Assembly: GCA_023248155.1 (NCBI GenBank)
Contig: JAHFFE010000002.1
Span: forward strand, 124,824-188,823
Source of the DNA: Candidatus Omnitrophota bacterium
Lineage (GTDB): Bacteria > Omnitrophota > Gorgyraeia > 1-14-0-20-64-10
Length of the DNA stretch: 64,000 nucleotides
Direction of reading: 5' to 3'
Both the position numbers and the translations under genes were made by a program. Position 1 is the stretch's first letter; each line of letters opens with the position of its first letter. This document shows positions 2,437-62,560 of the stretch, piece by piece. The notes under the pieces were generated by a model that searched no databases, was not told the DNA's origin, and saw only the letters and a program-made list of their open reading frames with translations.

Positions 2437-5400
2437 ATGAATAGTTCACAGCCTAAAACCCAACGGATTTTTCGACCGGCGGAGTTTTTATTTCTCCGCT
2501 TTCTAAGCGCTTTGCTGATTATTAGCATCGCGCTGCCGCCTTCATCTGCTTACGCGCTGCGGTCTCTTTCGGCAGTCGAATCTGGCGCCGAAGAAGAACT
2601 CACCCAATCGTTGAAACCTTCCGCACTTTCGGACAATGGATTGGCCGGTGAAATACGGGAAGAAATTTTAAGAGAAACCGCGTTTCTTCGCGTTGTTAAT
2701 ACGGGAAACAGTCCCTCATGGTTTACGGATATCGAAACGGAATATGTGCGGCAACATCCGGATCAGCGGCCGGCTGATCCGACTCCGCCCTGGATGCATT
2801 TGGTTGAAGGAGCAGACCGCCAGGTGTGGGTTCATCTGCATCTGTTCAGTGATCGTGCCGATCCGAATAGTTTGATGAACGGACTTTTGGTTGAGCTCAG
2901 GGAAGATGCCTCTGATTCGGCGTCGCCCCGTCTTCAGCCGGGTCGTATTCTCATTGAGCCATCTACCCACAGCCAGGTGCGGCGGTTTTTCTTGGATATA
3001 GAAGGTGACCCCGCGAATAATTTGCCGCCAGTTTTTGACGAACTGATTCGCAGCGCACTTCAGCATGAGATTACCGAGATGTTGAACCGGCCGGCTTACG
3101 GATTCCGGAAGTCTTTCACGCGTTTCCAGACAGAAAGAAAAACTTTGTTCGTGATAGCCGCATCCATCAATTCCGATCAACCCGGTTTGTATATGATGCT
3201 TCGGAGAAAGACAGCGGATCGTCCCGGTCCCCAGCTGGAATGGATGGCGCAATCCGGCCCTTATTTTGTTTTCGGAGATCGTCAGCGAGATGTTATTTTT
3301 CGCCGTCTCGACCAGCCGGAAGATCTTCCCGCGAAACGGCAGATTCTGAATCAACTAGGCGAAGGGGCCGGGCAGGAGGAGCGGAAGGAATTTTCTTCAA
3401 GACAGAAGCAATGGGCAAGGGTTGGTCTTGGTCTTTTAGGGGCGCTGGTTATCTCAGTAGGAACCATGGGTGGGTGGCCGTTAGGATTAAAAATTGCTCG
3501 AACCTGGGAACGGTCTCCCGCAGCGCTTTCCAAGAACAAAGATTATAAACATGAGGATCTGCAGAAATTGGCTGAAGATGTCCCGGCACCTTTGATAAAT
3601 GCTCGGCTTCAAGTTCGGCCTGAGGATGAGTCAAAAGTAAGTGGTTGGACACAGTATGGCGCGAAGACCGAAAATCCTTATTTGTTTGATATAGAGATTC
3701 CAGCTGGCCAGGCCAATGCAACAGTCCGAATACAATTGGTTTTACCCGATGGCACTGCGCCTCGTACTCATATTTACGACGGCATTCGAGTTAGTCAGGG
3801 TATGTACTCTATTTACTCAGAGAATGTCCAATGGAATATTGTTGCTGTAGATAAAGATAATAAAACCCGAATTCCAATTTCAGAACAAGCCCTGAATCTG
3901 GCAGAACTTTCATCTGCCGGATATTTTTATTCGGCAGATCATCCGGAATGGGAAAATATCGGTAGTTTTGAACTAGAACTTACAGTTGGAAGACCCCCTT
4001 GGTGGAATGACCTTTCAAAAGCTAGTTCTACGAGAATTATTATAGGATCAGCCAAAGTTGTTCGAACCCTGCAATATCAAAAAGCCCAGACTGCTCAAAG
4101 GGCTTTTCAAATTCTTTTTTCTCTGCTTGGTTTTTCTGCGACCGCGGTTCCGGTATGGTGGCTGTACCGCTCATTGAAAGAGAAAAAACCAGAAGCCGGG
4201 CAGGAGGAGCAGAAGGAGCTTTCTCCGACGCAGAAACGATGGGCGAAGGTTGGGTTTGGATTGCTGGGGCTGACGCTTGTCTCATTGACTACGCTGGGCG
4301 GCGCGGGCGGTGGATTGCAGCTGGCCCGCAACACCGAATATGATCCAGTGGAACGCCGGTCGGTTGTTTCGGCGCCTCCCGGAAAAATTATTGAACCTGT
4401 CGCGGCTATTGCACCCGATCCGACTAACGATACTCGATGGCCGGAGGTAGATGCGTCGCTGGAAGTGGTTCCTTCGGATCGCGAGAAGGTGCGCAATTGG
4501 CGTTTGTTTAGCGAGCCCGATCCCGATCAGCCGCAATTATTTACCGATAAACCAGGCCCGACCGGATTCATAGAAAAGGGCGGCTGGATCAGCGGATACG
4601 ATTTTACGCTGGAAATTCCGGCGGGCCAATCCAGCGTGACGATCCGTACGAAAGCGTCTTTGCCCGATGGAAGTCCTCTCGATTCGCGCGTCTATGGAGA
4701 TCTTTATACCGGTGTTTATCCCGATCCGCAGATGCCCGTTCAAATGTCAGCGGTTTCTTCCGATCAAACGTTCGAGAAAAAATACAGAGCGGCTTATGTG
4801 GCACAGAACACCTTGACTGTTTTGTATATTCAGGAAGACCCTGCGTGGGAACAGGTTCATTCCGTGGAACTGGAGTGGACATTTAATCGCCCTGCCGGGA
4901 GCGATCTGAGCAAGCCGTTTTCCGCGCAAGTGCACATGGATACGCTTCACGCCGCTCGCGACGAAAAATACAAAACAATCCAGGAACGGCGGAGTTGGCG
5001 CAATTTTTCTTACGGACTTGCGGGAGCACTGCTTGGCTTTACGATTTCCGCCGGCGCCGCCTACTGGCTGTACCGCTCATTGAGAGAGAAAAAACCGGAA
5101 GCCGGACAGGAAGAGAAGGTCGTTTCGAATGTTCAATTCCCATCGGGCTTGGAACCGGGCGCGAAAGATGCGATCCATGCCGCGATTTTGGAATTAAACC
5201 GAAGTGTTCAAAGCAATCTCACCCTGGTGAATACCGTCGCAAATTTTCGTGTGCGCTTGAATTCTGCCGTAACAGCGTTTACGCGGCCTTTATCGACGGA
5301 AGAATCCGATTTGCTGAAAACCATTACGCATACGACAAATGCCAATCAACTCCGCCCGGCTGGCGACCGTGACGCATTGTTGCGGTATCTCGAAAACGCT

Positions 5401-8400
5401 TCTGTGGTTCCCTCCGCCGGGCTGGAGGAACGGGGTTCTGTTCCGGTAGCTCGGGGAACGTTAGATGGGCGATTGCTGCGGTTGCCGGCCGGCTGGCTGA
5501 ATTTGAATGGAAAAAGAAAAGTTGTCGTTCAAAGAATAGACCGGGACGAAACGACAGGGCCTCATCTGGAGATTGTTACGCTCGATGAATTTGCTCGACG
5601 GAAAAGACGGGTTCATAGCCATATTCAATTAGGCTTCAGAGGTCTTCCGCATGCGCAGCAACATTTGAAGGCCGCTTTTGATCAGACCTACTATATCGCA
5701 GCGCTTAAAAAGGGCGGGATTGTGGAAATTTCCGAGGAATATCTCGCGCATGCCGGTGTTGTTCCTTCCGGAGACCTGGTGTTGATAGATCCGCCAAACC
5801 ATATAGAATTTTGGAATGCGGAAGCAGCCGCAGCCCGTTTTCAGGCGTTGTCATCCGTTCGCGTTTATGAAAAACCAGCCATCCAGTCTGAGTTGCAAAA
5901 ACTTGTGGCTGTGATGGAGAATCTGCTGGGCGCCCGGAATGACAGAGATGTCGCGGAAGCGCTTTACGACGCGGTGGCAGCTTTGGGCTACAGCGGTTTT
6001 GCGATGTATCTGGTCCGTCCCTCTGCGGGCGGGCAATACGATATCAGGAATGTTTATCGTAATCTTCCTCGCGAATCATCGGCGGCGGATTGGAAGCCGG
6101 CCCAGGATGAGATTGCCTACGCGCTTGCAAGTAACGAACCCGATCTCTTTATTGACCGGCTGGATAATACGGCGGATGTTTTTCCGCATGTCAGCCAGAG
6201 TTTCTTTACCCGGGACGCGAATGAGTATGGCGGCGGCGACAAAAATCGCGTGCGCCAGGTTTATTATCTTGTTGTCCGTGATCCGGTAACGCGTGAACCG
6301 AGAATGTTGATCCATTTAAACCGGTGGGCTGTCAACGAACCGGTTTTCTCGAGGGGCACTGCGGAAGAGCAGCGCCAGTTCCAGACGCACCTGCGCGGCG
6401 TTCTGGAAAGCTTGGGGTATGCCGCCTTGTTGGCCAGAGAGAATGTGCATTCCTATGAGCGGGCCGATATTTTTAACCGCTTGGGCGCGCGAAGAAGCAT
6501 TATTGGTAACCGCCTGCATAACGATGTTAAAAACAGTCTTGTTTTTGTGCCGACATTTATCGAACTTCTTGGCCAGCGGGAAAATCTGATTTTGGAAGAA
6601 ATGACCAATTTAAACCGGAACGTCGCGGAGTTAATGGCCGAAGTGATTGAGACGATGGGACGGGTTGAAAATCCGGGAGTTTCGTCGCAGCAGAATGGTT
6701 CGGCAGCGCCTCCGACGGAGCCGCTCGTTTCCGCAGATGATTTGGCTCTGCTGGAAGCGCTTTTCCATGACCTATCAGCGCAATTGTTAAATGCCGTCCG
6801 CCAGGATATGGATGCCGAAGATATGCGTACACGAATATTGAAACCTGTCCGGGATCGATTCAGCGCCAGTCGCTCCGCCCAGGCGGTTCTGGATCGGTGG
6901 GAACAGCTGGCTTCCACCGCGTCGATGGTGGTGTATGAGTTGCAACAGGAACGGGTAGATTTCCTGCGCAGAATTCCTGTTTTAAGACAACGATTTCTTG
7001 AACTGAAAACCCATGAAGCTCAACTCAGAACTGCCGCCGGCCGGTTGGATAATTTAGAAGCCCAAAAGAAAATCAGCATGATTATTTCGGGGACGATCAG
7101 AGCCCGCCGCTCAATGCTGCGGATATTAGATGAGTTGGAACACGCTTTGAGTGATGATTTGACTGTTTCTGAATTGCCTCCGCCGTATTCGGATCAGGTT
7201 GATCTTGTTTCCGAACTGCGGGAAATTATCGAGACCCGTTCCGGCCTGATGCAGTTGCATTTTTCGTCTGATTTGCCGGCAGCCTTAAGAGTGCCCGATG
7301 CGCGCGGTGATCTCGTATCGGGAATGCTGGGCGAGTTATTGGTGAATGCCTATAAAAACCGGCGGCCGGATGTTCCGTTGGAAGTTTGGGTATCGGTGCA
7401 ATATCAGGAATCAAGCGGAATGATTGATCTTACCGTTCGCGATAACGGCGCCGGAATTCCGTTAGCGAAGCGCGCGCAAATTTTTGAACGCGGAGCAACC
7501 AATGGAACATCGTCAGCCGGTGTTTCTCGCGGGCTGGGTCTGGCGACCAGGGAAGAACTGCAAAAATTGGGCGGCGGCATTGAGCTGGCCGAAAGTGTCC
7601 ATGCCGGTGATGCGAACGCAGCCCAGCCGGGCAGTACCTTCCATTTCTGGCTTCCGACGAATCCCTCCGCCGGCGCTGAGGAAAAAAAATCGGAATATGT
7701 TCTATCAAGAGGGCAGAGAATCACATTGTGGTTTGCATCCGCTACGCTGGGATTTGTGTTAACCGGATTAGGCACTGTGATTGGCGCCGGCGCTGGTTAC
7801 CACGCGGCTGAAACTTACTATCGGGCTGATGAAACCAAAAAACCGGCAGTCAGCCCGCCAGAATCTGATGCTCGCAATTATCCTTGGATGGTTGGCGGCG
7901 GGTTGGCTGGGTTGGTCGGTTCCATCGGGGCAATCCGCAGAGAGATTTCTTCAGGAAGAGACAAGCGTTCCGCTGGACTGGAGGAAAAAATAGTTGTTCG
8001 AGTTAACGACCAGGGGCAGCCTATTTTGAGCAGAGAAGGGTTGGCTGGCCGGATTCCCGGATACGGGAAAACAGTTGTTGTTCAGCCCCCCGCCGAGAGA
8101 TTAGCGGAAATTTCCGCGGTATTATCGGGCAAATTTTCCAACTTGGAAACGCTTCTTGTTCAGGCCTATCAATCCAAGGCGGATCCCATTGATATTTCTG
8201 CCATCAAGCAGGCAATCAGTCAGCTGAATCCGGAGTCACAAGTGTTTCGTCTTTCAGACACAATGAGTTTGGTGCAATTCATCGGATGGGTAGAGTCTTT
8301 GAACATCAGCTATTTTCATCAAATAGGCGTACATCTTTTGTTAAGACAAACTGTTGAAGGAGAGAGAATTTGGGCAAGGTATCAGTTTGGAGGGGCTCAA

Positions 8401-9732
8401 AATTGGGAGCAAATACCATATCTGAACGGGATCATCTATCTGAACCAAGGCACCGTTGATCGTGAACTTCCGTTTGAATGGGCCGGAACTCATCCGGCAA
8501 ACTCGGCGTACGCGCTTATGGATTTAGAGGCTGTCCGCTTATCGGATCAAAAGCAAGCAGAGCGTTATCGACAAGGCGGCTGGTCTGTGCTTGAGAAACA
8601 GTTGTTGATCGATCGCATTTACCTGGCGATGGAGGAGTCCCAAAGACGATTGGCAGAGGAGCGCTCCGCGTTTCTGGAAGAAACCCGGCACGCGCAAGAC
8701 GCGCTCTGGGCGTCTTTTTACCACGGGGTCGATGTGCGTCTTATAAACCAGGCTAATTTGCTCGTTGCCGACGCATTGGTTCGGCCGGATTCCTTGATCG
8801 ATAAAGTTTGGTCGCTCGGAAAAGGAAAATATCAAGTCAGGCAAACCCAAAAAAACCTGGAAGCTCTTTCCGCCAGGGCCGATGCCATTAGCGAACTTGC
8901 CGGCAATATGGGCAGTTTGCGGCAACAGATGAATGAACTTATTTTGGATGGAAAAGATCAGCAGGCATTTTTGATCTTCGCTTTGGATTTTGTGCGGCAG
9001 ATGAGAGCGGTCAATCAAGGGCATTCCAATACTGCCGATCTCTTTACTGCCTATATGTACCAAAAAGCGATTTCTGCTTCTCTGGGGATTCAGGAGCCAA
9101 CGGAAATTCTCATGTCCTTTATGCGTCAGCCATCGCCTGGCCGGGCCGCGTATGAATGGGTAGACCAATTTTACCGAAGAAATTTCTGGACCGACGAAGA
9201 GCGGGTCGCTTTGTTGGAAGGCAAATCCATCGCCGAGGTTTTGGCCGCTTCCGCCGGGGCGGAGGAATTGCAAGCGCGGCAGAGAATGACTGTTCTCGAC
9301 GAGGCGGCGCCGCAGGGGGCCGGTGTTTTGGTGATCGAGGCGCGGGCATTTGCCAACCGCGGCGGGTTGGAAGAATTTATCGGGCGGATTGGGGCATTAA
9401 AAACAAGAATAGTTTTGTTCGGCAGTGACAGCGCTGCTATTAAAGAATTAGCACTGCGCAATGGTGTTTCTGTTGTGGATAGCGACGATCCGGCCGATCT
9501 GGCGTTTCGTTTGGCCGGCATGGAAGAGCGCGCCAACCGGATCGGTTATGTTGGAAATTCAGAAACCGCCGGTCTGCTTGCGCGGATTCTTCCGGCCAGT
9601 ATGGTAGTTATTCCGTTGGGTTCTCCAACCCTCGAAAAAATGATGCTTTTTCTGGGCTATCCCTCCGCGGTGTTAAACAGCATCAATGCGGCCGGTTTTG
9701 AAGAGCAATTAGCCGCCTCTACCGCCGCGTAA
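2437..9732 (+). CDS. Giant (2431 aa) secreted/multi-pass membrane protein with embedded sensor histidine-kinase core (HisKA_2/HWE-like H-box plus HATPase_c); function unknown
   Basis: N-terminal signal-like segment (FLFLRFLSALLIISIALPPSSAYA). At least six hydrophobic helices, each followed by an acidic linker (..EAGQEE.., ..SAGLEEK..). Two homologous ~200-aa inter-TM domains (..LFDIEIPAGQANATVRIQLVLPDG.. and ..DFTLEIPAGQSSVTIRTKASLPDG..). Putative H-box IIGNRLHNDVKNSL near aa 1350. GHKL ATPase motifs near aa 1620-1740 (LGELLVNAYKN.., VRDNGAGIP, GLGLA). AT-rich stretches inside an otherwise GC-rich locus. Confidence 0.7.
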   Translation: MNSSQPKTQRIFRPAEFLFLRFLSALLIISIALPPSSAYALRSLSAVESGAEEELTQSLKPSALSDNGLAGEIREEILRETAFLRVVNTGNSPSWFTDIETEYVRQHPDQRPADPTPPWMHLVEGADRQVWVHLHLFSDRADPNSLMNGLLVELREDASDSASPRLQPGRILIEPSTHSQVRRFFLDIEGDPANNLPPVFDELIRSALQHEITEMLNRPAYGFRKSFTRFQTERKTLFVIAASINSDQPGLYMMLRRKTADRPGPQLEWMAQSGPYFVFGDRQRDVIFRRLDQPEDLPAKRQILNQLGEGAGQEERKEFSSRQKQWARVGLGLLGALVISVGTMGGWPLGLKIARTWERSPAALSKNKDYKHEDLQKLAEDVPAPLINARLQVRPEDESKVSGWTQYGAKTENPYLFDIEIPAGQANATVRIQLVLPDGTAPRTHIYDGIRVSQGMYSIYSENVQWNIVAVDKDNKTRIPISEQALNLAELSSAGYFYSADHPEWENIGSFELELTVGRPPWWNDLSKASSTRIIIGSAKVVRTLQYQKAQTAQRAFQILFSLLGFSATAVPVWWLYRSLKEKKPEAGQEEQKELSPTQKRWAKVGFGLLGLTLVSLTTLGGAGGGLQLARNTEYDPVERRSVVSAPPGKIIEPVAAIAPDPTNDTRWPEVDASLEVVPSDREKVRNWRLFSEPDPDQPQLFTDKPGPTGFIEKGGWISGYDFTLEIPAGQSSVTIRTKASLPDGSPLDSRVYGDLYTGVYPDPQMPVQMSAVSSDQTFEKKYRAAYVAQNTLTVLYIQEDPAWEQVHSVELEWTFNRPAGSDLSKPFSAQVHMDTLHAARDEKYKTIQERRSWRNFSYGLAGALLGFTISAGAAYWLYRSLREKKPEAGQEEKVVSNVQFPSGLEPGAKDAIHAAILELNRSVQSNLTLVNTVANFRVRLNSAVTAFTRPLSTEESDLLKTITHTTNANQLRPAGDRDALLRYLENASVVPSAGLEERGSVPVARGTLDGRLLRLPAGWLNLNGKRKVVVQRIDRDETTGPHLEIVTLDEFARRKRRVHSHIQLGFRGLPHAQQHLKAAFDQTYYIAALKKGGIVEISEEYLAHAGVVPSGDLVLIDPPNHIEFWNAEAAAARFQALSSVRVYEKPAIQSELQKLVAVMENLLGARNDRDVAEALYDAVAALGYSGFAMYLVRPSAGGQYDIRNVYRNLPRESSAADWKPAQDEIAYALASNEPDLFIDRLDNTADVFPHVSQSFFTRDANEYGGGDKNRVRQVYYLVVRDPVTREPRMLIHLNRWAVNEPVFSRGTAEEQRQFQTHLRGVLESLGYAALLARENVHSYERADIFNRLGARRSIIGNRLHNDVKNSLVFVPTFIELLGQRENLILEEMTNLNRNVAELMAEVIETMGRVENPGVSSQQNGSAAPPTEPLVSADDLALLEALFHDLSAQLLNAVRQDMDAEDMRTRILKPVRDRFSASRSAQAVLDRWEQLASTASMVVYELQQERVDFLRRIPVLRQRFLELKTHEAQLRTAAGRLDNLEAQKKISMIISGTIRARRSMLRILDELEHALSDDLTVSELPPPYSDQVDLVSELREIIETRSGLMQLHFSSDLPAALRVPDARGDLVSGMLGELLVNAYKNRRPDVPLEVWVSVQYQESSGMIDLTVRDNGAGIPLAKRAQIFERGATNGTSSAGVSRGLGLATREELQKLGGGIELAESVHAGDANAAQPGSTFHFWLPTNPSAGAEEKKSEYVLSRGQRITLWFASATLGFVLTGLGTVIGAGAGYHAAETYYRADETKKPAVSPPESDARNYPWMVGGGLAGLVGSIGAIRREISSGRDKRSAGLEEKIVVRVNDQGQPILSREGLAGRIPGYGKTVVVQPPAERLAEISAVLSGKFSNLETLLVQAYQSKADPIDISAIKQAISQLNPESQVFRLSDTMSLVQFIGWVESLNISYFHQIGVHLLLRQTVEGERIWARYQFGGAQNWEQIPYLNGIIYLNQGTVDRELPFEWAGTHPANSAYALMDLEAVRLSDQKQAERYRQGGWSVLEKQLLIDRIYLAMEESQRRLAEERSAFLEETRHAQDALWASFYHGVDVRLINQANLLVADALVRPDSLIDKVWSLGKGKYQVRQTQKNLEALSARADAISELAGNMGSLRQQMNELILDGKDQQAFLIFALDFVRQMRAVNQGHSNTADLFTAYMYQKAISASLGIQEPTEILMSFMRQPSPGRAAYEWVDQFYRRNFWTDEERVALLEGKSIAEVLAASAGAEELQARQRMTVLDEAAPQGAGVLVIEARAFANRGGLEEFIGRIGALKTRIVLFGSDSAAIKELALRNGVSVVDSDDPADLAFRLAGMEERANRIGYVGNSETAGLLARILPASMVVIPLGSPTLEKMMLFLGYPSAVLNSINAAGFEEQLAASTAA
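3355..5110 (+). repeat. Intragenic tandem duplication inside the giant CDS, repeated three times at the TM/linker junctions
   Basis: Near-identical DNA at ~3360-3470, ~4143-4330 and ~5040-5110 (e.g. ggctgtaccgctcattgaaagagaaaaaaccagaagccgggcaggaggagcagaagg versus ggctgtaccgctcattgagagagaaaaaaccggaagccggacaggaagagaagg). The encoded units are TM-WLYRSL(K/R)EKKPEAGQEE-..QK.WA(K/R)VG.GLLG-TM. The intervening ~200-aa domains are diverged but clearly homologous. Confidence 0.8.
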
Positions 9733-9829: not shown

Positions 9830-10348
9830 ATGAGAAATTTAATACGAATGGAAGAAATTGAGAATCATATCCTATTCGTCCGCGGGCACAAAGTAATGTT
9901 GGATGAAGGCTTGGCGCGGCTTTACGGTGTTTCTACAAAGCGTTTAAATGAACAGGTGCGACGAAATCGCGCTCGTTTTCCAAAAGATTTTATGTTTCAG
10001 CTTACGCCTGAAGAGGCCCGCTTTTTGAGGTCGCATTTTGCGACCTCAAGTTCGGAGCATGGAGGCCGGCGGTATCTCCCCTACGTGTTTACCGAACAAG
10101 GGATCGCCATGCTTTCCAGCGTGCTAAACAGCGAGAGAGCAGTCCAAGTGAATATTGCCATCATGCGAGCTTTTGTCAAATTGCGGAAGATTCTATCGAC
10201 CCATCGAGAATTTGCTCGAAAGCTTTCAGATTTGGAGCGTAAGTGGGAACTCCATGATGAACAAATACATTCGGTTTTTGAGGCAATCCGCCAGCTTATG
10301 GCGCCTGAACCTACGCGTCGCCGACGAATTGGATTTCACCGAGTGTAG
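9830..10348 (+). CDS. ORF6N-domain protein (KilA-N-related, phage antirepressor-like DNA-binding protein)
   Basis: The N-terminal half (..IENHILFVRGHKVMLDEGLARLYGVSTKRLNEQVRRNRARFPKDFMFQLTPEE..) is typical of the ORF6N family. The gene and its flanks are AT-rich relative to the locus. Confidence 0.65.
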   Translation: MRNLIRMEEIENHILFVRGHKVMLDEGLARLYGVSTKRLNEQVRRNRARFPKDFMFQLTPEEARFLRSHFATSSSEHGGRRYLPYVFTEQGIAMLSSVLNSERAVQVNIAIMRAFVKLRKILSTHREFARKLSDLERKWELHDEQIHSVFEAIRQLMAPEPTRRRRIGFHRV

Positions 10349-10493
10349 GGATAAATACCCCCGCTTTTACCTGTTCCAATTCTTGTTTCATCCCACCTAT
10401 TTTGTGCGATAATTATTAGTAGGGGTATTGGATTATTATTATCATTAATTCAAAGGCGGTTTACCGCCATATAGAGGAAGGAGAGTAAGCCAA

Positions 10494-12989
<2,496 letters not shown>

Positions 12990-26060: not shown

Positions 26061-27512
26061 GTGACCACCGCTGGAATTGTTGATACGCACTGCCATCTGC
26101 ACCGCGCCGAATTTGATGCCGACCGCGACGCGATCCTTGCGCGCGCGCGCCAAATCGGTTTGACCGCGCTGATTGATCCGGCCACCGATGTCGCTTCAAG
26201 CCGGATTGTTGCGCAGACCGTCCAAAAATATCCCGAACTGTACGGCGCCGTCGGCGTTCATCCGCAAGACACGGCCGGTTTGACCGACGAAGGCCTGGAA
26301 GAGCTACGCAAGCTGGCGACGGCTCCGAAAATTGTGGCGATCGGCGAGATCGGTCTTGATTATTACCGTGAATCGACGCCCCGTGCTGTTCAACAGCAGG
26401 CGCTGCGCCGTTTATTGGCGCTTGCGCAAGAAACCAACAAACCGATTATTCTGCATTGCCGTCAGGAAGAGAGCGGCGGACTGGCCGGCCAGGGCGGGCA
26501 GGCGTATCAGGATCTCTTTTTAATTTTGCGCGAATGCATGAAGCCGCCGGTGCGCGGTGTTTTGCACTGTTTTTCAGGTGATCTCGAAGCGGCCAATGAG
26601 GCGATCGGCCTGGGTCTTTATTTATCGTTCGCCGGTATTTTAACTTTCACTAAAGCCGAAGCGCTGCGCGCGGTGGCCCGGCAGGTTCCATTCGACCGTG
26701 TGATGCTGGAAACCGACGCGCCGTTTTTATCGCCCCAGCCGTACCGCGGAAAACGGAATGAACCGGCTTTTCTCGACGCGCTGATTAAAACCTGGGCGGA
26801 AATCAAAGATTTGTCGGAAGAGGATGTCCGCCGCGTGACCTCGGTGAATGCGTATCAGTTGTTCGGTGTCGGCCAGGCCCCCGTGCGCGGGCGCGTGGCG
26901 TATGCGATCCGCGATTCGCTCTACATCAATCTGACGAATGCCTGTACCGACCGCTGTGTTTTTTGCGCGCTCAGCGACGATCAGTTCTGGAAAGGCGAGG
27001 GAACTTCACCGTTTGTGAAGGGGCATCATCTGCGAATGGCCAAAGATCCGTCGGTCGAGGAAGTTCTGTCCGCCGCGGGAGATCCATCTCAGTATAAAGA
27101 AATTGTTTTTTGCGGATACGGCGAACCGGTGATCCGGTTGAAAGAACTGCGCGAGATCGCGCTGCGCCTGCGTGAAAAAGGGGCGAAGTCGATCCGGATC
27201 AATACCAACGGGCACGGCAACTTAATTCATAAACGGCCGGTGGCCGGTGAGTTGAAGGGGATCGTCGACGAAATATCAGTCAGCTTAAATACACCGAACG
27301 CAGAACAATATCTGGAAATCTGCCGGCCGTCGTTCGGCCTGCCGGCCTATGAATCGATCAAACAGTTTATCCGCGACTGCCGCGACGCGGGGATCCGCGT
27401 GGTGGCGACTGTGGTGGCGATGCCCGGCGTTGATGTCGAGGCCTGCCGAAAAGTGGCTGAAGAGGAGTTGAAAGTGATTTATCGCGTGCGGGGTTACGAC
27501 GATGTGGGATAA
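26061..27512 (+). CDS. Fusion protein: TatD-family metal-dependent hydrolase (N-terminal ~265 aa) plus TatD-associated radical SAM domain (C-terminal ~215 aa)
   Basis: TatD motifs at the N-terminus (VDTHCHL.., ..GEIGLDYY.., ..LETDAPFL..). CX3CX2C radical-SAM cluster motif NACTDRCVFC at about aa 293. One continuous 483-aa ORF. Confidence 0.7.
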   Translation: MTTAGIVDTHCHLHRAEFDADRDAILARARQIGLTALIDPATDVASSRIVAQTVQKYPELYGAVGVHPQDTAGLTDEGLEELRKLATAPKIVAIGEIGLDYYRESTPRAVQQQALRRLLALAQETNKPIILHCRQEESGGLAGQGGQAYQDLFLILRECMKPPVRGVLHCFSGDLEAANEAIGLGLYLSFAGILTFTKAEALRAVARQVPFDRVMLETDAPFLSPQPYRGKRNEPAFLDALIKTWAEIKDLSEEDVRRVTSVNAYQLFGVGQAPVRGRVAYAIRDSLYINLTNACTDRCVFCALSDDQFWKGEGTSPFVKGHHLRMAKDPSVEEVLSAAGDPSQYKEIVFCGYGEPVIRLKELREIALRLREKGAKSIRINTNGHGNLIHKRPVAGELKGIVDEISVSLNTPNAEQYLEICRPSFGLPAYESIKQFIRDCRDAGIRVVATVVAMPGVDVEACRKVAEEELKVIYRVRGYDDVG

Positions 27513-28527
27513 GCCGGTCGACCGTTTCTTGCTGGCCGCCGTGGTCGTGCTTTCGCTGGCATCGGTGGTTTCTCCGCGCCGTGCGCATCGTCCGGAACTG
27601 TTGCTGTCGAATGAAACAACGGTAGAGCAGAAAATGCCGGTAGAGATGAGCCAGAAGGCGGTTGAAGCAAAACTGCGCGACAACCCCGTACTGCGCGCCC
27701 GGTTTGAGCAGGCGTCGACGGTTAGTTTTGTTTTCATGTTTTTATCGCTCTTTTATTTCATGCAGTTGTTTGCAGCGCTCATTTTTAAGCGGTTGGTTTT
27801 GAAAAAGACGCCGCCGGCTGAACTGGATGACGGGTTTTTGGTGGTGTTCCGCGCGGTGGCCGGATCGTTGACGGTGCTGCTGTCATTCCCGTGGATAGCG
27901 GCCGCGATTCACCGGCTGTTTCCCGCAGCGTGGTTGCCGCAAGGCCGCGTTGAATCGATTCTGATGACGCTCTGCGTGAATGCGTTTTTGTTTTTGCTGC
28001 TGGCCTGGAGGTTCTGGGGAGCCGCACTGCTTCCTCCAATGGAAAAAGAATGGAAGCGCCATCTTCTGGCGGTCGTGACGGCGGTTCGATGGTACCTGGC
28101 ATTGGTTCCGGTTTTATTTGCGGTGATTATCCTGTCGGTGCTGGCGTTTCGCGCGGCCGGCATTGAAGGGCCCAGTCAGGAAATTTTTCAGATTTATCTT
28201 TCGGAAGGCCGCGGACCGATTTTGGGACTGTTGAATATTTTAATCGTGGTGGTGGGACCGGTTACGGAAGAATTGTTTTTCCGGGGAGCGCTTTACCGGT
28301 CGCTGAAACCGCGCGCCGGAATCCGCGGAGCGTTGATTCTATCGGCGGCGTTATTTGCGGCGCTGCATATGGACTTGGTCGCATTCGTCCCGATTTTCAC
28401 GCTGGGATTGTTGTTCGGCTGGGTTTACGAGCAGACCGGATCGCTGGCGGCCCCGATTACCATTCATTTGCTGCATAACGGGTTCATGCTTTATTTCGCG
28501 TCGCTGGTCAAGGAACTCCTTTCATGA
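27502..28527 (+). CDS. CPBP-family (CAAX/Abi) intramembrane metalloprotease
   Basis: Multi-TM protein with conserved EELFFRG and ..FAALHMD motifs. Confidence 0.75.
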   Translation: MWDKPVDRFLLAAVVVLSLASVVSPRRAHRPELLLSNETTVEQKMPVEMSQKAVEAKLRDNPVLRARFEQASTVSFVFMFLSLFYFMQLFAALIFKRLVLKKTPPAELDDGFLVVFRAVAGSLTVLLSFPWIAAAIHRLFPAAWLPQGRVESILMTLCVNAFLFLLLAWRFWGAALLPPMEKEWKRHLLAVVTAVRWYLALVPVLFAVIILSVLAFRAAGIEGPSQEIFQIYLSEGRGPILGLLNILIVVVGPVTEELFFRGALYRSLKPRAGIRGALILSAALFAALHMDLVAFVPIFTLGLLFGWVYEQTGSLAAPITIHLLHNGFMLYFASLVKELLS

Positions 28528-28540
28528 TGGCGTTTTTTTC

Positions 28541-28830
28541 GAGTCGGCTCGGGCATGGGAGCCGTGGACACGCTCGGAATCGACTACCGATTCCGTCGCT
28601 CTGTCTGCGGCCTTGCCGAAGAACAATTCGATTCGGCCTTCGCCAAGGTCCACTGGCCCCATATCCCGAACCGCCTCTTATCACGCAGGCGCTTCGGGTG
28701 ACGCGGGCGGGAGAGGCCTTCGCCGCCACGCGCGCAGCGAAGCGAGCACGGACGGCGGAGAGTGTCCCCGAGCGGCAGGACCCGAAGCGACGGAGATTGA
28801 TGATATCCCGGGCCGACTCGTTGGTAACAG
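28541..28830. repeat. Copy 1 of a ~290-bp structured intergenic repeat element with imperfect terminal inverted repeats (MITE-like or structured-RNA-like)
   Basis: A ~245-bp core (28556-28800) is ~97% identical to 62291-62531. Flanks are inverted (gagtcggctcggg ... cccgggccgactc). Internal hairpins include cggaatcg-actac-cgattccg, ccgtcgct...agcgacgg and cgcttcg..cgaagcg. The overlapping ORFs 28524..28862 and 28508..28837 are spurious. Confidence 0.8.
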
Positions 28831-28858
28831 GATCCAAAGTGGCCGCGAGGGTTCTCGC

Positions 28859-29779
28859 GTGAAGGTGGCGGAGTTGGGCGAGGACCGGCTGATCGCGAAA
28901 ATTTCCCGGCAGCTGCCGGCGGGCGCTTTCGTGAAGCGCGGCGTCGGCGACGATTGCGCGGTGTTTCGCATCGACGCGCGGCGCGACGGACTTTTAGCGT
29001 CGGACATGCTGGTGGAGGGTGTTCATTTTTCTTCGCAGAGTCCGGCTGAGCAGGTGGGCTGGAAACTGCTGGCTGTAAATCTCAGCGATATCGCCGCGAT
29101 GGGCGGAACGCCGCGGGCCGCCGTTGTTTCCATCGGGATTCCGCCTTCGACGCCGGTTGGTTGGGTGGAAAAACTTTATCGCGGATTGGGGCGATGCGCG
29201 CGCGCCTATGGCGTCAGCATTGTCGGCGGAGATACGGTGCGTGCGCCCCAGCGTGTGGCTGACCTTTCAATTTTGGGCGAGGTGCCTGCCGGAAAAGCAA
29301 TTTTGCGGACCGGCGCCAGGCCCGGCGACTGGATTTTGGTAACGGGCCGTCTGGGCGGGTCATTGAAATCGGGACGGCATTTGTCGTTTAAGCCGCGGCT
29401 GAAAGAGGCTGCCGCATTGCTGAAGCATTGCCGGCCGACGGCGATGATGGATCTGTCCGACGGATTATGGATTGATCTGCCGCGGCTTTGCAAGGCCAGC
29501 GGTGTTCGCGCCGAGGTGGAAACCGAATTGGTTCCACGAAACCGGAACTGTTCCACGCTTCAGGCGTTAACGGACGGCGAAGATTTTGAACTGTTATTGA
29601 CGGTTCGCCCCGGACATCTGCGTCCGCTGTTGCGCTGGGCCAAACGTTCGCTGCCGTGCGGCTTGACGCCGATCGGGTTGATGAGTGCCCGCAAGCAGGG
29701 AACGCCGGAAGTGGAATGGTTTGACCGGATGAATCAGAAATTAAAAATGACCCCAAAAGGATTCCAACATTTTTCATGA
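28859..29779 (+). CDS. thiL: Thiamine-monophosphate kinase
   Basis: AIR-synthase-related fold (..GDDCAVF.., ..LLAVNLSDIAAMGG.., ..VSIVGGDT..). Start assigned to GTG 28859 (VKVAELGEDRLIAKI..). The longer annotated ORF from 28355 reads through the repeat and is probably an artefact. Confidence 0.75.
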   Translation: MKVAELGEDRLIAKISRQLPAGAFVKRGVGDDCAVFRIDARRDGLLASDMLVEGVHFSSQSPAEQVGWKLLAVNLSDIAAMGGTPRAAVVSIGIPPSTPVGWVEKLYRGLGRCARAYGVSIVGGDTVRAPQRVADLSILGEVPAGKAILRTGARPGDWILVTGRLGGSLKSGRHLSFKPRLKEAAALLKHCRPTAMMDLSDGLWIDLPRLCKASGVRAEVETELVPRNRNCSTLQALTDGEDFELLLTVRPGHLRPLLRWAKRSLPCGLTPIGLMSARKQGTPEVEWFDRMNQKLKMTPKGFQHFS

Positions 29780-36871: not shown

Positions 36872-37123
36872 CGCGGCCGCGCTGGATGAAGTTACCAGCC
36901 GTGCAAGGCGAGAGGAGGAGGCATAGCCACATAGGCGCTATTCCGACGACGAGCAACGTCGCACGGCGAAGTAAATTCGGCCAGCCCTTTGGGTTTCGGT
37001 GGCAGGCCGCCGTCTCCGTCGGCGCTCTTCCTTGACGTATTACTGTGAATACGCCGTCGTCATCGCTTCTTGGATACGACGGCCTGGCACTCGAAACGCG
37101 GCTAGCGCTAGGTTTCGAGACGA
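36843..37123. repeat. ~280-bp element bounded by a perfect 22-bp inverted repeat (possible MITE or long stem-loop leader upstream of ilvB)
   Basis: agctcgtctcgaaacctagcgc (36847-36868) is the exact reverse complement of gcgctaggtttcgagacgagct (37101-37122). The right arm also forms a local hairpin (ctcgaaac..gtttcgag). Confidence 0.7.
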
Positions 37124-37251
37124 GCTCTATAACAAAAACTGGACAGTCACACGGCACCAACACTCTGAACGACGGGTGTCCGGTCCAAGCGGCCGGGCAT
37201 TGGTTTTCGGGGAATGGCTGTGGACGGCTGACGGTTTAAGGAGATAAAAGA

Positions 37252-44994: not shown

Positions 44995-44996
44995 AA

Positions 44997-45506
44997 GTGG
45001 ACAGTATTATTCTAGTCGGGTTCATGGGAACGGGTAAATCAACGGTCGGCAAATTGCTTGCCGATAAGTTGAAGCGGCCGTTTATTGACCTGGACCGAAT
45101 GATCGAGAAAAGCGCGGGCAGCACCGTCGCCCAGATTTTTTCGGAGCAGGGTGAAGGGAAATTCCGTCAGCTCGAAACAGAGGCGGTTCGCAAGGCGGTC
45201 AAAAAACCGGGTGTTGTGATTGCGACGGGCGGCGGTGTTTTATTGAAGGAAGAAAATCTTCGGTTGCTGAAAGGCGCCGGAACGTTGGTCTGTCTGACGG
45301 CCGGCGTCGATCAAATCATGCGCCGGATCGGAGCAGGGCGCGGCCGCAGGCCTTTGCTGGCCGGCGAAGATCCGCGCCGCCGCGTCGAGGACTTGCTGGC
45401 CCAGCGCGCACCTTATTACGCACAGGCCAATTGCACCATCTCGACGGACGGTCTTACGGCCAAACAGGCGGCAGAAAAAATAAAGAAAGAATTGAATTTG
45501 TCATGA
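44997..45506 (+). CDS. aroK: Shikimate kinase
   Basis: P-loop GFMGTGKSTVG. Length 169 aa. Confidence 0.85.
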   Translation: MDSIILVGFMGTGKSTVGKLLADKLKRPFIDLDRMIEKSAGSTVAQIFSEQGEGKFRQLETEAVRKAVKKPGVVIATGGGVLLKEENLRLLKGAGTLVCLTAGVDQIMRRIGAGRGRRPLLAGEDPRRRVEDLLAQRAPYYAQANCTISTDGLTAKQAAEKIKKELNLS

Positions 45507-51205: not shown

Positions 51206-52221
51206 AAAACCGAATCCTCGGATGGATATGGCGATGGTCGCTGGCTCCGGTGCTGGAAGTCGTTTACGCGGCGGGGTTGACGGTCGTCTACGCGCTTTAC
51301 CGGGTCCGGATTTTTCGCAGACACCGCCTTCCGGTGAAGGTGGTCAGCGTCGGGAACCTGACCTGGGGCGGGACCGGCAAAACGCCGCTGGTGCTGTTTC
51401 TGGCGCGGCAGTTAAAACAACGGGGATGGCGCGTCGCCGTTCTGACGCGCGGATATGGAAAAGATGAGTCACGGCTTTTAACCGAAAGGCTGGCGCCGAT
51501 TCCGGTGCTGGTCGGACCGGACCGTCTTGCCAACGGAAAAAAAGCGATTGAACAGCACAACGCCAATCTGCTGTTGCTGGATGACGGGTATCAGCAGTGG
51601 CGTTTGATCAAAGACATTGAAATACTGATGGTGAATGAAGGGTCTCCGTGGGGCAACGGCCATTTGATTCCTCGCGGAATTTTGCGTGAACCGATTTCGG
51701 CCGGCCGGCGCGCCGACCTGGTGGTGATGAAACAGTCCAGCCCCGATCCTTCGGCGGCCGTCTGGACCGAGGTCCATCTGCGGGCCGCTTTAATCGATGC
51801 GCCGTTGTTTCAGATGGGCTATACCGTCGCGACGCTGCGGGAATGGCCGGGCAGGGCAACGCTGCCGCCGTCGTCGTTAAAAGGGCGGCGCGTGGCCACG
51901 CTGGCCGGTATCGCCGGACCCACCCAGTTTGAAGCGACGGTTCGTTCTTTGGGGGCATCGGTTCCGGTTCATTTCCGCGTGCGCGACCATCATCCGTACA
52001 CGGCCCAGGAATTAGTCCGGATGGTTCAGCGCTGTCAGCGCAATCAGATTGACAGCTTGGTGACCACCGCGAAAGATGCGGTCCGTTTGCACGGTTTTTT
52101 CATGGATTTTCTGAAAGAGCGCGCGCCGCAGTTTAAAATTTTGATTATTGAAATTGAACCCTGGTTTAAACCTGATGAAAGCCAACTTTTACACCGAATC
52201 GATACTTTACTCGCTCGCTAG
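51202..52221 (+). CDS. lpxK: Tetraacyldisaccharide 4'-kinase
   Basis: P-loop VVSVGNLTWGGTGKTP. Length 339 aa. Follows waaA. Confidence 0.85.
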   Translation: MKNRILGWIWRWSLAPVLEVVYAAGLTVVYALYRVRIFRRHRLPVKVVSVGNLTWGGTGKTPLVLFLARQLKQRGWRVAVLTRGYGKDESRLLTERLAPIPVLVGPDRLANGKKAIEQHNANLLLLDDGYQQWRLIKDIEILMVNEGSPWGNGHLIPRGILREPISAGRRADLVVMKQSSPDPSAAVWTEVHLRAALIDAPLFQMGYTVATLREWPGRATLPPSSLKGRRVATLAGIAGPTQFEATVRSLGASVPVHFRVRDHHPYTAQELVRMVQRCQRNQIDSLVTTAKDAVRLHGFFMDFLKERAPQFKILIIEIEPWFKPDESQLLHRIDTLLAR

Positions 52222-54181: not shown

Positions 54182-56376
54182 CCGTTTTGCAGTTGGTCCC
54201 GGCGCTCAAAGGCGGCGGTGTGGAAACCGGTACGGTCGACATGGCCCGCGGTTTAATGGCGCAGGGCCATCGCGCGATCGTTATCTCTTCGGGCGGTCCG
54301 CTGGTCAAGGAACTGGAAGCCGCCGGCGCTATCCATTACACGCTGCCCATTCACCGCAAACTTCCCTGGATTGCGCTCAAACAAGTTCCGCGCGTCGCTG
54401 AGTTAATCGAATCGCATGGCGTCGATGTGATCCACGCGCGCAGCCGTGTTCCGGCGATCATCGGCTATCTGGCGTGGCGGAAAGCCGCCTGCAAAGCCAG
54501 TTTCCGGATGGGCGGCCGGCAGCAGCTGCCGGTTTTTATCACGACGGCGCACGGCTATTATTCCAAACATCCGTTCAGCGCCGTGATGGGCTGGGGCCGG
54601 TGGGTAATCGCCAACTCCGAGAGCATTGCCCGCCATATGATCGATGATTTTCATGTGCCTTCCGATAAAATCCGGTTTATTCCGCGCGGCGTTGACCTTG
54701 AAAAATATCAATGGAGAGAGCCGCGCGCTGAGTCGGTCAAAGGGGATTGGGTTATCAGCTGCATCGGGCGGATCACGCCGATCAAGGGGCACCGCGATTT
54801 AATCCGCGCGTTCGCCGCGGTCGCCAAAACGTTTCCGAAAGCCCGATTGAGGATTATCGGCGGGGCCGACGCGCGCCATCAGAATTATCTTCAGGAACTC
54901 AAACAGCTGGTATTGAAATTAAGTCTGGAAGATCGCGTTGAATTTTCGGGGCATGAGCCGAATATCCCGTTGGCGCTGGCGCAGAGCGATCTGATGGTGC
55001 TTCCCTCGACTTGTCAGGAGGCGTTCGGCCGCGTTTTGATTGAGGCCGGCGCATCCGGCGTTCCGGTGGTCGCCACGCGCGTCGGTGGAATCCCGGAAGT
55101 GATCCTTGACAAGAAAACAGGACTGATCGTTCCTCCTCAGGATCCGGTGGCGCTGGCGTCGGCGATGAACACGCTGTTGAAAGACCGCGCGCTGGCGCTG
55201 ACGCTGGCGCGCGAGAACCGCCGCCGCGTGGAAACCGTTTACCCGATGGCGCGCATGGTCCGCCAGACGATGGAAGTTTATCAGGAAGCCGGCCAGTCGC
55301 TGCGAATTTTGGTGATCAAGCTCAGCGCCGTAGGGGATATCGTGCTGATTACGCCGTCTTTGCGCGCGCTGCGCGACCGGTTTCCCAAGGCGCAGATCAC
55401 CGTGCTGGTCGGCCGCGAAGGCCGCGAACTTCTGCACCGCTGTCCGTATATCGATGATCTGGTTGTTTTTGACCGCGCGCAGAACGGAACTATTGCGGGT
55501 TTGCTGCGGATGGCGCGCCGGCTGCGCGAATCGCAGATTGATCTCGTGATTGATTTTCAGAATAACCGGATCAGCCATTGGCTGGGCCGCCTCTGCGGCG
55601 CGCCGCACCGCTACGGCTGGGCCGGCCGCCGCTGGAGCTGGCTGTTGTCGCATCGCGCGATTCCTCCCGAACAGCCGCTCTCGCCGGTTGACCATCAGTT
55701 CCGTCTGCTGCAGCTGGTCGGTGTTGAATCGAATGACAAACGGCTGGAGCTCTGGCCCGGGCCGTCCGACCAGAGCCGCGTCGATGCATTGCTCAACGAA
55801 TCTTGGGTTGCGCAGCAGCAGCCGCTGGTGGCGATTCATCCGGGCGGAAGCTGGCTTTCAAAACAGTGGCCCGAATCGTATATTCTGGAACTGGTCGACC
55901 GTCTGGCCGGCATTTCAAAAGTACGCGTGATTTTGATCGGCTCGGCGAAAGAACGGCCGATCTGCGACCGGATCCATCATGCGGCGCGCGTCAAACCGGT
56001 GGTAGCCGCCGGCCGGACCTCGCTGAATGAATTGGCCGCGCTGCTGGGCCGCTGCTCGGTTTTTATCGGGGGTGATTCCGCTCCGCTGCATGTGGCGGCG
56101 GCGGCCGGTATTCCGATTATCGCGCTGTTCGGCGCGACCGATCCTTTGCGGCATCTTCCGCCGGCTTCTTCGCTGACGCTGTTAAGGACGCAGTTGCCGT
56201 GCAGTCCCTGCTACCGCCCGAAATGTCCGCGCGTCGGGGCAGGCAAGATGGAATGCATGAAATCAATCACTGTGGAAACGGTCGCACAAACGGCCGCTAA
56301 AATCGTGACCGCTTCTCCGCGCCGCAATCCGGCTGTTTCGCGCGTCGAGACCGATCTGTTTTCCGCGGACAAATGA
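54172..56376 (+). CDS. Fusion glycosyltransferase: GT1/GT4-family glycosyltransferase (N-terminal) plus GT9 ADP-heptose:LPS heptosyltransferase (C-terminal)
   Basis: GT4-like N-terminal half ending ..EAFGRVLIEAGASGVPVVATRVGGIPEVI... Then a heptosyltransferase-like half beginning ..LRILVIKLSAVGDIVLITPSLRAL.. One 734-aa ORF. Confidence 0.7.
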   Translation: MALTVLQLVPALKGGGVETGTVDMARGLMAQGHRAIVISSGGPLVKELEAAGAIHYTLPIHRKLPWIALKQVPRVAELIESHGVDVIHARSRVPAIIGYLAWRKAACKASFRMGGRQQLPVFITTAHGYYSKHPFSAVMGWGRWVIANSESIARHMIDDFHVPSDKIRFIPRGVDLEKYQWREPRAESVKGDWVISCIGRITPIKGHRDLIRAFAAVAKTFPKARLRIIGGADARHQNYLQELKQLVLKLSLEDRVEFSGHEPNIPLALAQSDLMVLPSTCQEAFGRVLIEAGASGVPVVATRVGGIPEVILDKKTGLIVPPQDPVALASAMNTLLKDRALALTLARENRRRVETVYPMARMVRQTMEVYQEAGQSLRILVIKLSAVGDIVLITPSLRALRDRFPKAQITVLVGREGRELLHRCPYIDDLVVFDRAQNGTIAGLLRMARRLRESQIDLVIDFQNNRISHWLGRLCGAPHRYGWAGRRWSWLLSHRAIPPEQPLSPVDHQFRLLQLVGVESNDKRLELWPGPSDQSRVDALLNESWVAQQQPLVAIHPGGSWLSKQWPESYILELVDRLAGISKVRVILIGSAKERPICDRIHHAARVKPVVAAGRTSLNELAALLGRCSVFIGGDSAPLHVAAAAGIPIIALFGATDPLRHLPPASSLTLLRTQLPCSPCYRPKCPRVGAGKMECMKSITVETVAQTAAKIVTASPRRNPAVSRVETDLFSADK

Positions 56377-57401
56377 AAATCGTTCAACCCAAACGGATCC
56401 TGATCGTTGGTCTGAATTGGATGGGCGATCTTCTGCTGTTGACGCCGTCGATCCGGGCGATCCGGAAAAATTACCCTCACGCAACCATCGTTTGCCTGGT
56501 TCCGCCGCGCGGGGAGGCCGTACTGGAAGATAATCCGAACCTGGACCGTCTGATTGTCTATCCCGAATCGCGCGGTTTATCCGGATGGATTGGTTTCTGG
56601 CCGTTGGTCTTTCTTCTGCGTTCTGAACGGTTTGATGCCGCGTTTTTGTTTCATCCATCGGGAACGCGCGCGATGGCGGCCTGGCTTGCCGGCGTGAAGC
56701 AGCGGATCGGTTTTAAAACAAAAAAAGGAAATTGCTGGCTGACCCGGGCTGTTGAGATGCCCTCCAAAGATTCCACGCACAAAGCGGCCGTTTATCTGCG
56801 GCTTGTCGAGGCGGCCGGTTTGAAAACCGACGGTTTTTCCTGTGACGCCGGCATTCGTGATGCCGATGAGCAGGCGGTCGACCGGCTTTACCAACAGATC
56901 GGATTGCGCAGCGACCGTCCGGCCGTGGCGATTCATCCGGCGGCCAACTGGAAATTGAAACGGTGGCCGGCCGAATCGTTCGCGCGCCTGGCCGACCGGC
57001 TCGCGCGGGAGAAACAGGCGCAGATCGTTTTCATCGGAACCAAAAATGAACTGCCGTTGGTTGAACAGGTCCGTTCCCGCATGCAGCACCAGGCGTTCGT
57101 CGCCGCCGGCAAGACCAGCTTCAAGGAACTGGGCGCTTTACTGAAACGGATGAATCTGCTGATTACCAACGATTCCGGGCCGATGCATCTGGCCGCCGCC
57201 GTCGGCACGCCGCTGGTGGGGCTGTTCGGCCCGACGCTGCCGTCGCTCAGCGGTCCGCCGTCCGATCCCCGGTTTAAAACGCTGCACGGTTCCATCGGCT
57301 GCCCGGTGCCGTGCTATCAACTCAACTGTCCGGCGAACTTGTGCATGGAACAGATCTCGCCCGATCAGGTCTTCGCAGAAGCGGAAAAATGGCTGAAATA
57401 A
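56373..57401 (+). CDS. GT9-family LPS heptosyltransferase
   Basis: KRILIVGLNWMGDLLLLTPSIRAI N-terminal signature, C-terminal ..NDSGPMHLAAAVGTP.. motif. Confidence 0.75.
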   Translation: MKIVQPKRILIVGLNWMGDLLLLTPSIRAIRKNYPHATIVCLVPPRGEAVLEDNPNLDRLIVYPESRGLSGWIGFWPLVFLLRSERFDAAFLFHPSGTRAMAAWLAGVKQRIGFKTKKGNCWLTRAVEMPSKDSTHKAAVYLRLVEAAGLKTDGFSCDAGIRDADEQAVDRLYQQIGLRSDRPAVAIHPAANWKLKRWPAESFARLADRLAREKQAQIVFIGTKNELPLVEQVRSRMQHQAFVAAGKTSFKELGALLKRMNLLITNDSGPMHLAAAVGTPLVGLFGPTLPSLSGPPSDPRFKTLHGSIGCPVPCYQLNCPANLCMEQISPDQVFAEAEKWLK

Positions 57402-62275: not shown

Positions 62276-62560
62276 AGAGGCGGCCCGGGCTATGGGGACC
62301 GTGGACACGCTCGGAATCGACTACCGATTCCGTCGCTCTGTCTCCGGCCTTGCCGAAGAACAATTCGATTCGGCCTCCGCCAAGGTCCACTTGCCCCATA
62401 TCCCGATCCGCCTCTTACCACGCAGGCGCTTCGGGTGACGCGGGCGGGAGAGGCCTTCGCCGCCACGCGCGCAGCGAAGCGAGCACGGACGGCGGAGAGT
62501 GTCCCCGAGCGGCAGGACCCGAAGCGACGGAGGTTTGCAGATAAGCCCGGCCCGACTCTT
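62276..62560. repeat. Copy 2 of the ~290-bp structured repeat element
   Basis: 62291-62531 is ~97% identical to 28556-28800, with similar inverted flanks (gaggcggcccgggc ... gcccggcccgactc). The overlapping ORFs 62269..62544 and 62435..62818 are spurious. Confidence 0.8.

Follow-up and report, generated by a model that had tools for sequence, protein, structure and literature searches.

A palindromic interspersed repeat, probably of a new MITE/REPIN-like family, in a compact Candidatus Omnitrophota genome

Introduction

What is an element of about 280 nt, rich in self-complementary sequence, doing in a genome whose genes stand almost end to end? The stretch of 64 kb analysed here (the window) comes from a Candidatus Omnitrophota bacterium, and its genes are of the housekeeping kind, nearly all of them on the + strand and mostly separated by spacers of 0-10 nt. 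The element lies in two of the gaps and is the sole long repeat family found in the window. An earlier note on this DNA had offered two readings of it, a MITE on account of its size and inverted termini, and a structured RNA or REP/BIME-like regulatory repeat on account of its many possible hairpins. We have looked at the extent and anatomy of the element, at its copies in other assemblies, at its insertion sites and at the conservation of its fold, and we weigh these readings against each other below.

Results

Location and extent

The two copies share a gapless core of 244 nt with 97% identity (28555-28798 and 62292-62535, both on the + strand), and their likeness extends beyond it to the imperfect inverted ends. 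The earlier note had described two + strand copies with a core of about 97% identity, and their positions are as it gave them; its outer bounds were well placed, but the ends are here trimmed slightly, to those given in Table 1. The element is richer in G+C (66-68%) than the window (56%). Copy 1 lies between the stop codon of a CPBP/Rce1-like protease gene (28525-28527) and the GTG start of thiL (28859), and copy 2 between the stop of a DoxX/MauE-like gene (62263) and that of a convergent FIST gene (62576). The intergenic + strand siting claimed before holds, but the rule that the element follows a membrane-protein gene does not, since elsewhere it follows priA or an epimerase gene, or lies upstream of a gene; the membrane-protein neighbour of both window copies is a coincidence. 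A search with nhmmer and a covariance model found no diverged further copies in the window (filters off) or in 87 other loci (0.83 Mb).

Table 1. Positions of the element, its parts, its further copies and the spurious ORFs that cover it. Positions are those of the window unless a contig is named.
Feature	Position	Strand	Remarks
Copy 1, long form	28541-28819	+	279 nt; in the 331-nt gap from the CPBP/Rce1-like protease gene to thiL
Basic unit in copy 1	28541-28677	+	137 nt; left end, inner stem, hairpins A and B, internal right end
Left inverted end	28541-28553	+	GAGTCGGCTCGGG; pairs with 28665-28677 or 28807-28819
Hairpin A	28575-28595	+	CGGAATCG, loop ACTAC, CGATTCCG
Hairpin B	28615-28637	+	GCCGAA ... 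TTCGGC
Internal copy of right end	28665-28677	+	CCCGAACCGCCTC, with ATATCCCG directly before it
Long hairpin of right arm	28691-28788	+	about 100 nt; long form only; copies 1 and 2 identical here
Terminal right inverted end	28807-28819	+	CCCGGGCCGACTC, with ATATCCCG directly before it
Inverted ends, left...right pair			GAGTCGGCCCGGGC...GCCCGGGCCGACTC
Copy 2, long form	62277-62558	+	282 nt; from the DoxX/MauE-like gene to the convergent FIST gene
Basic unit in copy 2	62277-62414	+	covariance model R1, 159 bits
Third long copy	L008 987-1266		between priA and def
Short copy	L009 1349-1213	-	137-nt unit
Short copy	L095 1899-2035		137-nt unit
Short copy	L096 248-384		137-nt unit
Spurious 112-aa ORF	28524-28862	+	over copy 1; P0125, listed among the genes of a public ENA assembly
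Spurious 48-aa ORF	62292-62438	+	over copy 2; listed among the genes of public assemblies

Some other features of the window are recorded here in their own right. Three further gaps between long ORFs are unusually long (36872-37251, 44995-45430 and 51206-52147, of about 380, 436 and 940 nt) and precede ilvB, dprA and a lipid A acyltransferase-like gene, respectively; no Rfam match and no copy of the element was found in them. An ORF of 2431 aa (2437-9732, + strand), whose only Pfam match is HATPase_c (residues 1630-1741), forms an insertion with mcsA/mcsB-like genes (747-2341) on one side and an ORF6N gene followed by clpC (9830-12989) on the other, and it contains direct repeats (3367-3473 with 4195-4301, and 4123-4212 with 5029-5118). 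Four paralogous GT9 genes stand in a row at 55800-60800 and have short DNA blocks in common (repeat families D2 and D7). Between the third and the fourth of them lies a gene for a UG21 reverse transcriptase (RT) of 525 aa (58366-59943, + strand), which overlaps its upstream neighbour by 4 nt, has a gap of 0 nt to the downstream gene, and falls in the stretch of the window with the lowest G+C content (0.477 at 58001-59000). With GT9 heptosyltransferase and LPS-core genes around it, it is an orphan RT of the UG/Abi class in an LPS operon, not in a defence island.

Inverted ends and composite build

In copy 1 the left end GAGTCGGCTCGGGC (28541-28554) opposes the reverse complement of GAGTCGGCCCGGGA (28806-28819); the outer pair reads GAGTCGGCTCGGGC...CCCGGGCCGACTC. 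In copy 2 the corresponding ends lie at 62277-62290 and 62545-62558 (GAGGCGGCCCGGGC...GCCCGGCCCGACTC). With up to two mismatches, the 14-mer of the end has six matches in the window where 1.04 are expected, a number that none of 100 shuffles reached, and four of the six are ends of the element. The imperfect inverted termini reported earlier are thus real, 13-14 nt long and more frequent than chance would give.

The short copies L009, L095 and L096 are not random fragments; each corresponds to the long form over its left 137 nt and is bounded by inverted ends of its own. The long form of about 280 nt is thus a composite, consisting of the 137-nt unit, a spacer, a hairpin of about 100 nt and a second right end. 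The earlier note missed this build upon the 137-nt unit; a composite with two right ends explains the pairings that it had called mutually exclusive.

Fold and compensatory changes

The hairpins named in the earlier note are all present: cggaatcg/cgattccg (28575-28595), gcgcttcggg/cccgaagcg, which closes the arm at 28691-28788, and tccgtcgct/agcgacgga, with 9 nt. Compared with shuffled sequences the element folds strongly on both strands (z -4.2 and -4.7). The 137-nt unit folds into a Y, with a terminal stem of 13 bp, an inner stem of about 12 bp (ATGGG..GTGGAC with GTCCAC..CCCAT) and the hairpins A and B; a covariance model of it, R1, scores 161 bits on the basic unit of copy 1. L096 folds by itself to the same Y (z -5.9 under RNA and -6.4 under DNA parameters).

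Counted over the six sequences, 93.7% of the cells of the unit fold are paired. Five pairs have changed on both sides, compared with 1.7 in shuffles (3 of 500 shuffles reach five) and 0-2 in a control with the partners slid. Four of these five are in the terminal stem and are mostly owed to L096, whose ends (AAGGGGATCGGG...CCCGATCCCCTT) have diverged in sequence and kept their complementarity, with four pairs changed on both sides. Such covariation of the terminal stem would also be expected if one protein has to bind both ends. The fifth pair lies within hairpin A, where L095 has U-A for C-G, and this is not what one would expect if only the ends mattered. In hairpin B, L095 turns a G.A mismatch into A-U, and a pair is kept as G-U in L009. 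L008 differs in the right arm by three C/U changes opposite G, which remain paired on the + strand and are broken on the - strand. Taken together, the substitutions indicate that the fold is maintained by compensatory change.

Within the 137-nt unit, G-U and A.C cells are balanced between the strands (2 versus 2), and the arms differ, the left one folding more stably on the - strand and the right one on the +. This balance, and the split between the arms, mean that the fold does not tell which strand, or which nucleic acid, has been selected. Rfam at the gathering threshold gave 0 matches in the whole 64 kb, and a permissive search gave nothing relevant on copy 1 (E up to 10) or on L096 and L008 (E up to 5). 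The structured-RNA reading of the earlier note is therefore left without an Rfam family and with a covariation that is alike on both strands; the sole hint in its favour is the sense orientation of all six copies, to which we return below.

Coding status and wrong gene calls

The element is non-coding, as had been proposed. There is no excess of synonymous changes in any of its frames, an indel in L008 shifts the frame, and from copy to copy the ORFs have different ends, the short forms diverging at different points. On these grounds a gene for a small protein was ruled out. The suspicion that the element has misled gene callers was likewise justified: the mechanical ORF 28355-29779 crosses the element and over-extends thiL, which truly starts at the GTG at 28859, and public assemblies contain called "genes" whose whole length falls on the element, of 46 aa (on its minus strand), 48 aa and 112 aa. 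The 48-aa ORF has been joined in a 90% cluster with the NadB-like P0130 and P0131, under a NadB-like representative of 555 aa; the sequences have no visible similarity, and this looks like a clustering artefact.

Copies in other assemblies and the host lineage

Further copies were found by querying the spurious ORFs, translated in two frames, and then reading the contigs on which the matches lay. This gave four extra loci from other metagenome assemblies, and with the two in the window there are six loci for which the DNA is at hand. The earlier note had counted a finding of only these two copies in the genome, together with a lack of inverted ends or target-site duplication and of a transcript, against both of its readings; there are more than two, in other assemblies. 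At least three more loci are evidenced by spurious ORFs alone (P0128, P0133 on four contigs, and P0134), and P0127 is an allele of the L008 locus according to a protein cluster look-up. The assemblies from which the copies come are several and are held in ENA, Logan and NCBI. The family is narrow, as a search of 1.84 billion protein representatives gave only five related spurious ORFs, and these few matches also suggest that the copy number in the genome is low. Some short public contigs break within the element (L002 and L003 end 44 nt into it, and L005 starts at model position 230), which is how assemblers behave at repeats.

Exact scans with four blocks of the element (19-26 nt) had 0 matches in the GTDB genomes and 0 in the JGI metagenomes; in IMG/VR one 19-mer matched by chance within a coding region (L010), and the three other patterns had 0 matches. 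These empty scans imply that the source lineage is absent from those collections. Among GTDB species representatives, the best matches to ThiL are groundwater MAGs of Candidatus Omnitrophota, with an identity of only 57%, which points to an Omnitrophota lineage that has no close representative there.

Insertion sites

The clearest evidence for insertion comes from the priA-def junction. In the JGI contig L091 the C-terminus of PriA is 93% identical to that of L008, and only 22 nt separate the priA stop from the def start. L008 and L091 can be aligned on both sides of a single clean insertion of 302 nt, which holds the 280-nt element, and in L093, a more distant relative, priA and def are 12 nt apart. 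The surroundings of copy 1 tell a similar story. The distant Omnitrophota relatives L011 and L012 have kept the gene order TatD-radical SAM/CPBP/ThiL/TsaE/TsaB, and the spacing between CPBP and ThiL is less than 20 nt in both, compared with 331 nt in the window. The tight junctions in the relatives mean that the element has been added and is not an old conserved RNA gene. The copies have thus been inserted into very short spacers at the ends of genes in a tightly packed genome. The first gene in this order is, in the window, a TatD-like hydrolase/radical-SAM fusion of 483 aa (26061-27512, + strand), which has 58-71% identity to proteins of other Omnitrophota MAGs, where these likewise precede CPBP and thiL.

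The flanks of copy 2, TTGCTCAA to the left and TTGCTGAA to the right, agree at 7 of 8 positions, and L008 has AAAAAC on both sides, although offset, at distances of 12 nt (left end) and 1 nt (right end). No target-site duplication was found at copy 1 or at the short forms L009, L095 and L096, and none is consistent over the six copies, whose left flanks (TTTC, TCAA, TTCA, TTTC, TAAC and TAAT) have no 4-5 nt in common. A transposase, a RAYT or a parent IS was looked for and not found in the 64-kb window, in the flanks of the other copies or in 0.93 Mb of loci.

A phage origin is not supported, as there was no phage match, and neither is a plasmid origin, for which the sole match was one of 34 nt at 92% to intergenic sequence of haloarchaeal plasmids. 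This match joins 28729-28764 in the right arm (CGCGCGCAGCGAAGCGAGCACGG...) to L094 1501-1534, which is unannotated, intergenic and identical on 46 haloarchaeal plasmids, among them those of Halobacterium and Haloferax pHV4; chance similarity to a conserved haloarchaeal repeat is the probable explanation.

Orientation and gene context

Each of the six copies is oriented in the sense direction of a gene next to it (two-sided binomial p ~0.03). Five of them start 0-16 nt past the stop codon of an upstream gene with the same orientation; the sixth, L095, is preceded by a divergent gene and followed, 26 nt further on, by a co-oriented one. Four of the six are within apparent operons. The copies outside the window are on contigs of 1-3.6 kb and adjoin priA, an epimerase gene, an M17 peptidase gene and an unnamed gene, and no promoter or terminator is common to the copies. 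With near-zero spacers, the siting at gene ends is forced. The orientation is not, and is therefore a real but weak hint, which could reflect selection at the RNA level or a mechanism of insertion that depends on the replication strand; six sense copies out of six are not an obvious outcome for a simple cut-and-paste DDE element. Both window copies are on the G-rich strand, in a window where the cumulative GC skew rises steadily, and on the short contigs the GC skew does not track the orientation of the element.

Discussion

We believe that the element probably represents a new MITE/REPIN-like family of palindromic interspersed repeats, non-coding, confined to a narrow lineage of Candidatus Omnitrophota and mobilised in trans. 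The mobilisation is the part that we infer: an enzyme encoded elsewhere in the genome would recognise the inverted ends or the hairpins and move the element, and candidates for it are a DDE transposase that would work on the terminal inverted repeats and an HUH/RAYT-type enzyme that would work on the hairpins. After insertion, the element would be transcribed together with its neighbours, as a strongly folded segment between cistrons or at the 3' side, and the copies that we now see may be only those insertions that the flanking operons could tolerate. In a literature search we found no publication that links Omnitrophota with MITE- or REPIN-like elements.

The conservation of the fold could also be explained by function. 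The Y unit might be an RNA module that acts in cis within its host mRNAs, for instance by blocking 3' exonucleases, by providing an RNase processing site or by uncoupling adjacent cistrons, as for REP/BIME, ERIC and Correia repeats; mobility would then only deliver it, and selection on the RNA fold would account for the conserved sequence. Such a role would suit the sense orientation of every copy, the start of five of the six just past a stop codon, the four copies in apparent operons, the compensatory or stem-extending changes in hairpins A and B, and the three C/U changes in the right arm of L008, which pair only on the + strand. We find it unlikely all the same, since there is no Rfam family, the fold of the unit favours neither strand by its G-U and A.C cells, the left arm folds better on the - strand even if the right arm prefers the +, no promoter or terminator common to the copies was found, and the siting after stop codons and the co-orientation are in part imposed by the near-zero spacers and the one-stranded genes. 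Some of the same observations would follow if the element were a hairpin of single-stranded DNA moved by an HUH tyrosine enzyme, either as a REPIN with its RAYT or as a palindrome-associated derivative of IS200/IS605. Both the missing target duplication and the uniform orientation would be explained if such an enzyme inserted the element into one replication strand, and the position of the window copies on the G-rich strand under a rising cumulative skew, a fold that is as significant with DNA as with RNA parameters, and the stems kept by compensatory change are all compatible with it. The 137-nt unit is however far larger than REP units of 20-40 nt, the element has true terminal inverted repeats where the ends of IS200/IS605 have none, its left flanks are without a consensus of 4-5 nt, neither a Y1 transposase nor a RAYT turned up in the window or the other loci examined, and the GC skew of the short contigs does not track the orientation of the element, all of which makes this specific form of mobility distinctly improbable.

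The RT gene, 2.3 kb upstream of copy 2, raises yet another thought, namely that the element is the RNA partner or template of this enzyme, in a retron- or DRT-like system or as an element copied via RNA. The gene matches RT_UG21 (E 2.5e-143), and several UG/Abi RT systems do require a structured ncRNA, although none has been described for the UG21 class, and the known DRT ncRNAs adjoin their RT (PMC9226505). Here, three genes stand between the RT and copy 2, copy 1 lies at a distance of 30 kb, no RT was called on the contigs of the other four copies (1-3.6 kb), and the copies have neither a poly-A tail nor a 5' truncation, the short forms lacking the 3' part and not the 5' part. The differences between copies are not adenine-specific either, so they do not form a template/variable pair of a DGR. 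We regard a partnership with this RT as extremely unlikely. A broader claim, that the 137-nt Y unit is a mobile RNA module of the sense strand, serving as an intercistronic regulator or stabiliser or being re-inserted by means of the orphan UG21 RT, with the inverted ends a mere by-product of its fold, seems to us very doubtful. Two more specific candidates were tried and rejected. A DGR repeat pair does not agree with the differences observed (G/C, T/C, G/T, A/T, T/C and A/G), which are not confined to adenine, or with a nearby RT of UG21 type, and a group II intron or retron tied to that RT does not agree with the lack of Rfam intron domains, the overlap of 4 nt between the RT and its neighbour, and the other copies, which have no RT beside them on their contigs of 1-3.6 kb.

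Having the element in mind would be of practical use. It has given wrong gene calls in public data, in the form of an over-extended thiL and of "proteins" of 44-112 aa from several assemblies, and short-read contigs break in it; masking it would improve the annotation of these Omnitrophota MAGs. It could serve as a strain-level marker and as an entry point to the enzyme that mobilises it. A compact genome of a candidate phylum, almost without intergenic DNA, still carries a non-autonomous repeat that is active or has recently been so, with a modular build and a fold kept by compensatory change, but this does not open a new category of system.

Comparison with known systems

A mobile MITE/REPIN-like repeat invites comparison with the bacterial MITEs above all, such as Correia/NEMIS of Neisseria, Nezha of cyanobacteria and Chunjie of Geobacter. 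Like these, the element is small and non-coding (137 nt and 279-282 nt, where MITEs stay below about 600 bp), has terminal inverted repeats, folds into long hairpins and would be co-transcribed with its neighbours. It is also dispersed between genes, at six loci with DNA and at least three more seen by their ORFs, and is polymorphic for presence and absence, L091 being empty where L008 is filled. It differs from MITEs in that no consistent target-site duplication and no parent IS could be identified, that its internal hairpins are kept by compensatory change, that it has a short and a long form in a two-module build with a duplicated right end, and that it is known from one Omnitrophota lineage only. 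Of the earlier MITE reading the data support the mobile repeat, with at least six loci, conserved inverted ends, an empty site in a close relative, adjacent genes in distant relatives and no credible ORF, but they do not establish classical membership.

With the REP, BIME and REPIN-RAYT systems of Enterobacteria and Pseudomonas it has in common that it is palindromic, extragenic, found at the ends of genes and within operons, mosaic and, as it would be transcribed, structured in the mRNA; REP/REPIN lack a target duplication. Its unit of 137 nt with three stems is however not a palindrome of 20-40 nt, its copies are apparently few, two in 64 kb, and do not run to the hundreds that are seen for REP, and no RAYT was seen in the window. 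It also departs from IS200/IS605, which use a fixed target of 4-5 nt and have no terminal inverted repeats. The mycobacterial MIRUs sit, as the element does, in the intercistronic spacers of operons and in a single orientation to transcription, but they are tandem repeats of 46-101 bp with small ORFs that bridge stop and start, whereas the element is a single-copy palindrome with no conserved ORF.

ERIC/IRU and the pneumococcal BOX are also imperfect palindromes, of 100-300 nt, which lie in transcribed intergenic regions and have no association with a transposase, and the modular build of BOX (boxA-B-C) resembles the short and long forms described here. The element is dissimilar to them in sequence, belongs to another phylum and can be seen as an insertion against an empty site. 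In its manner of working it would nonetheless seem, by analogy, to belong with the MITE, REPIN, ERIC and BOX class of structured intergenic repeats.
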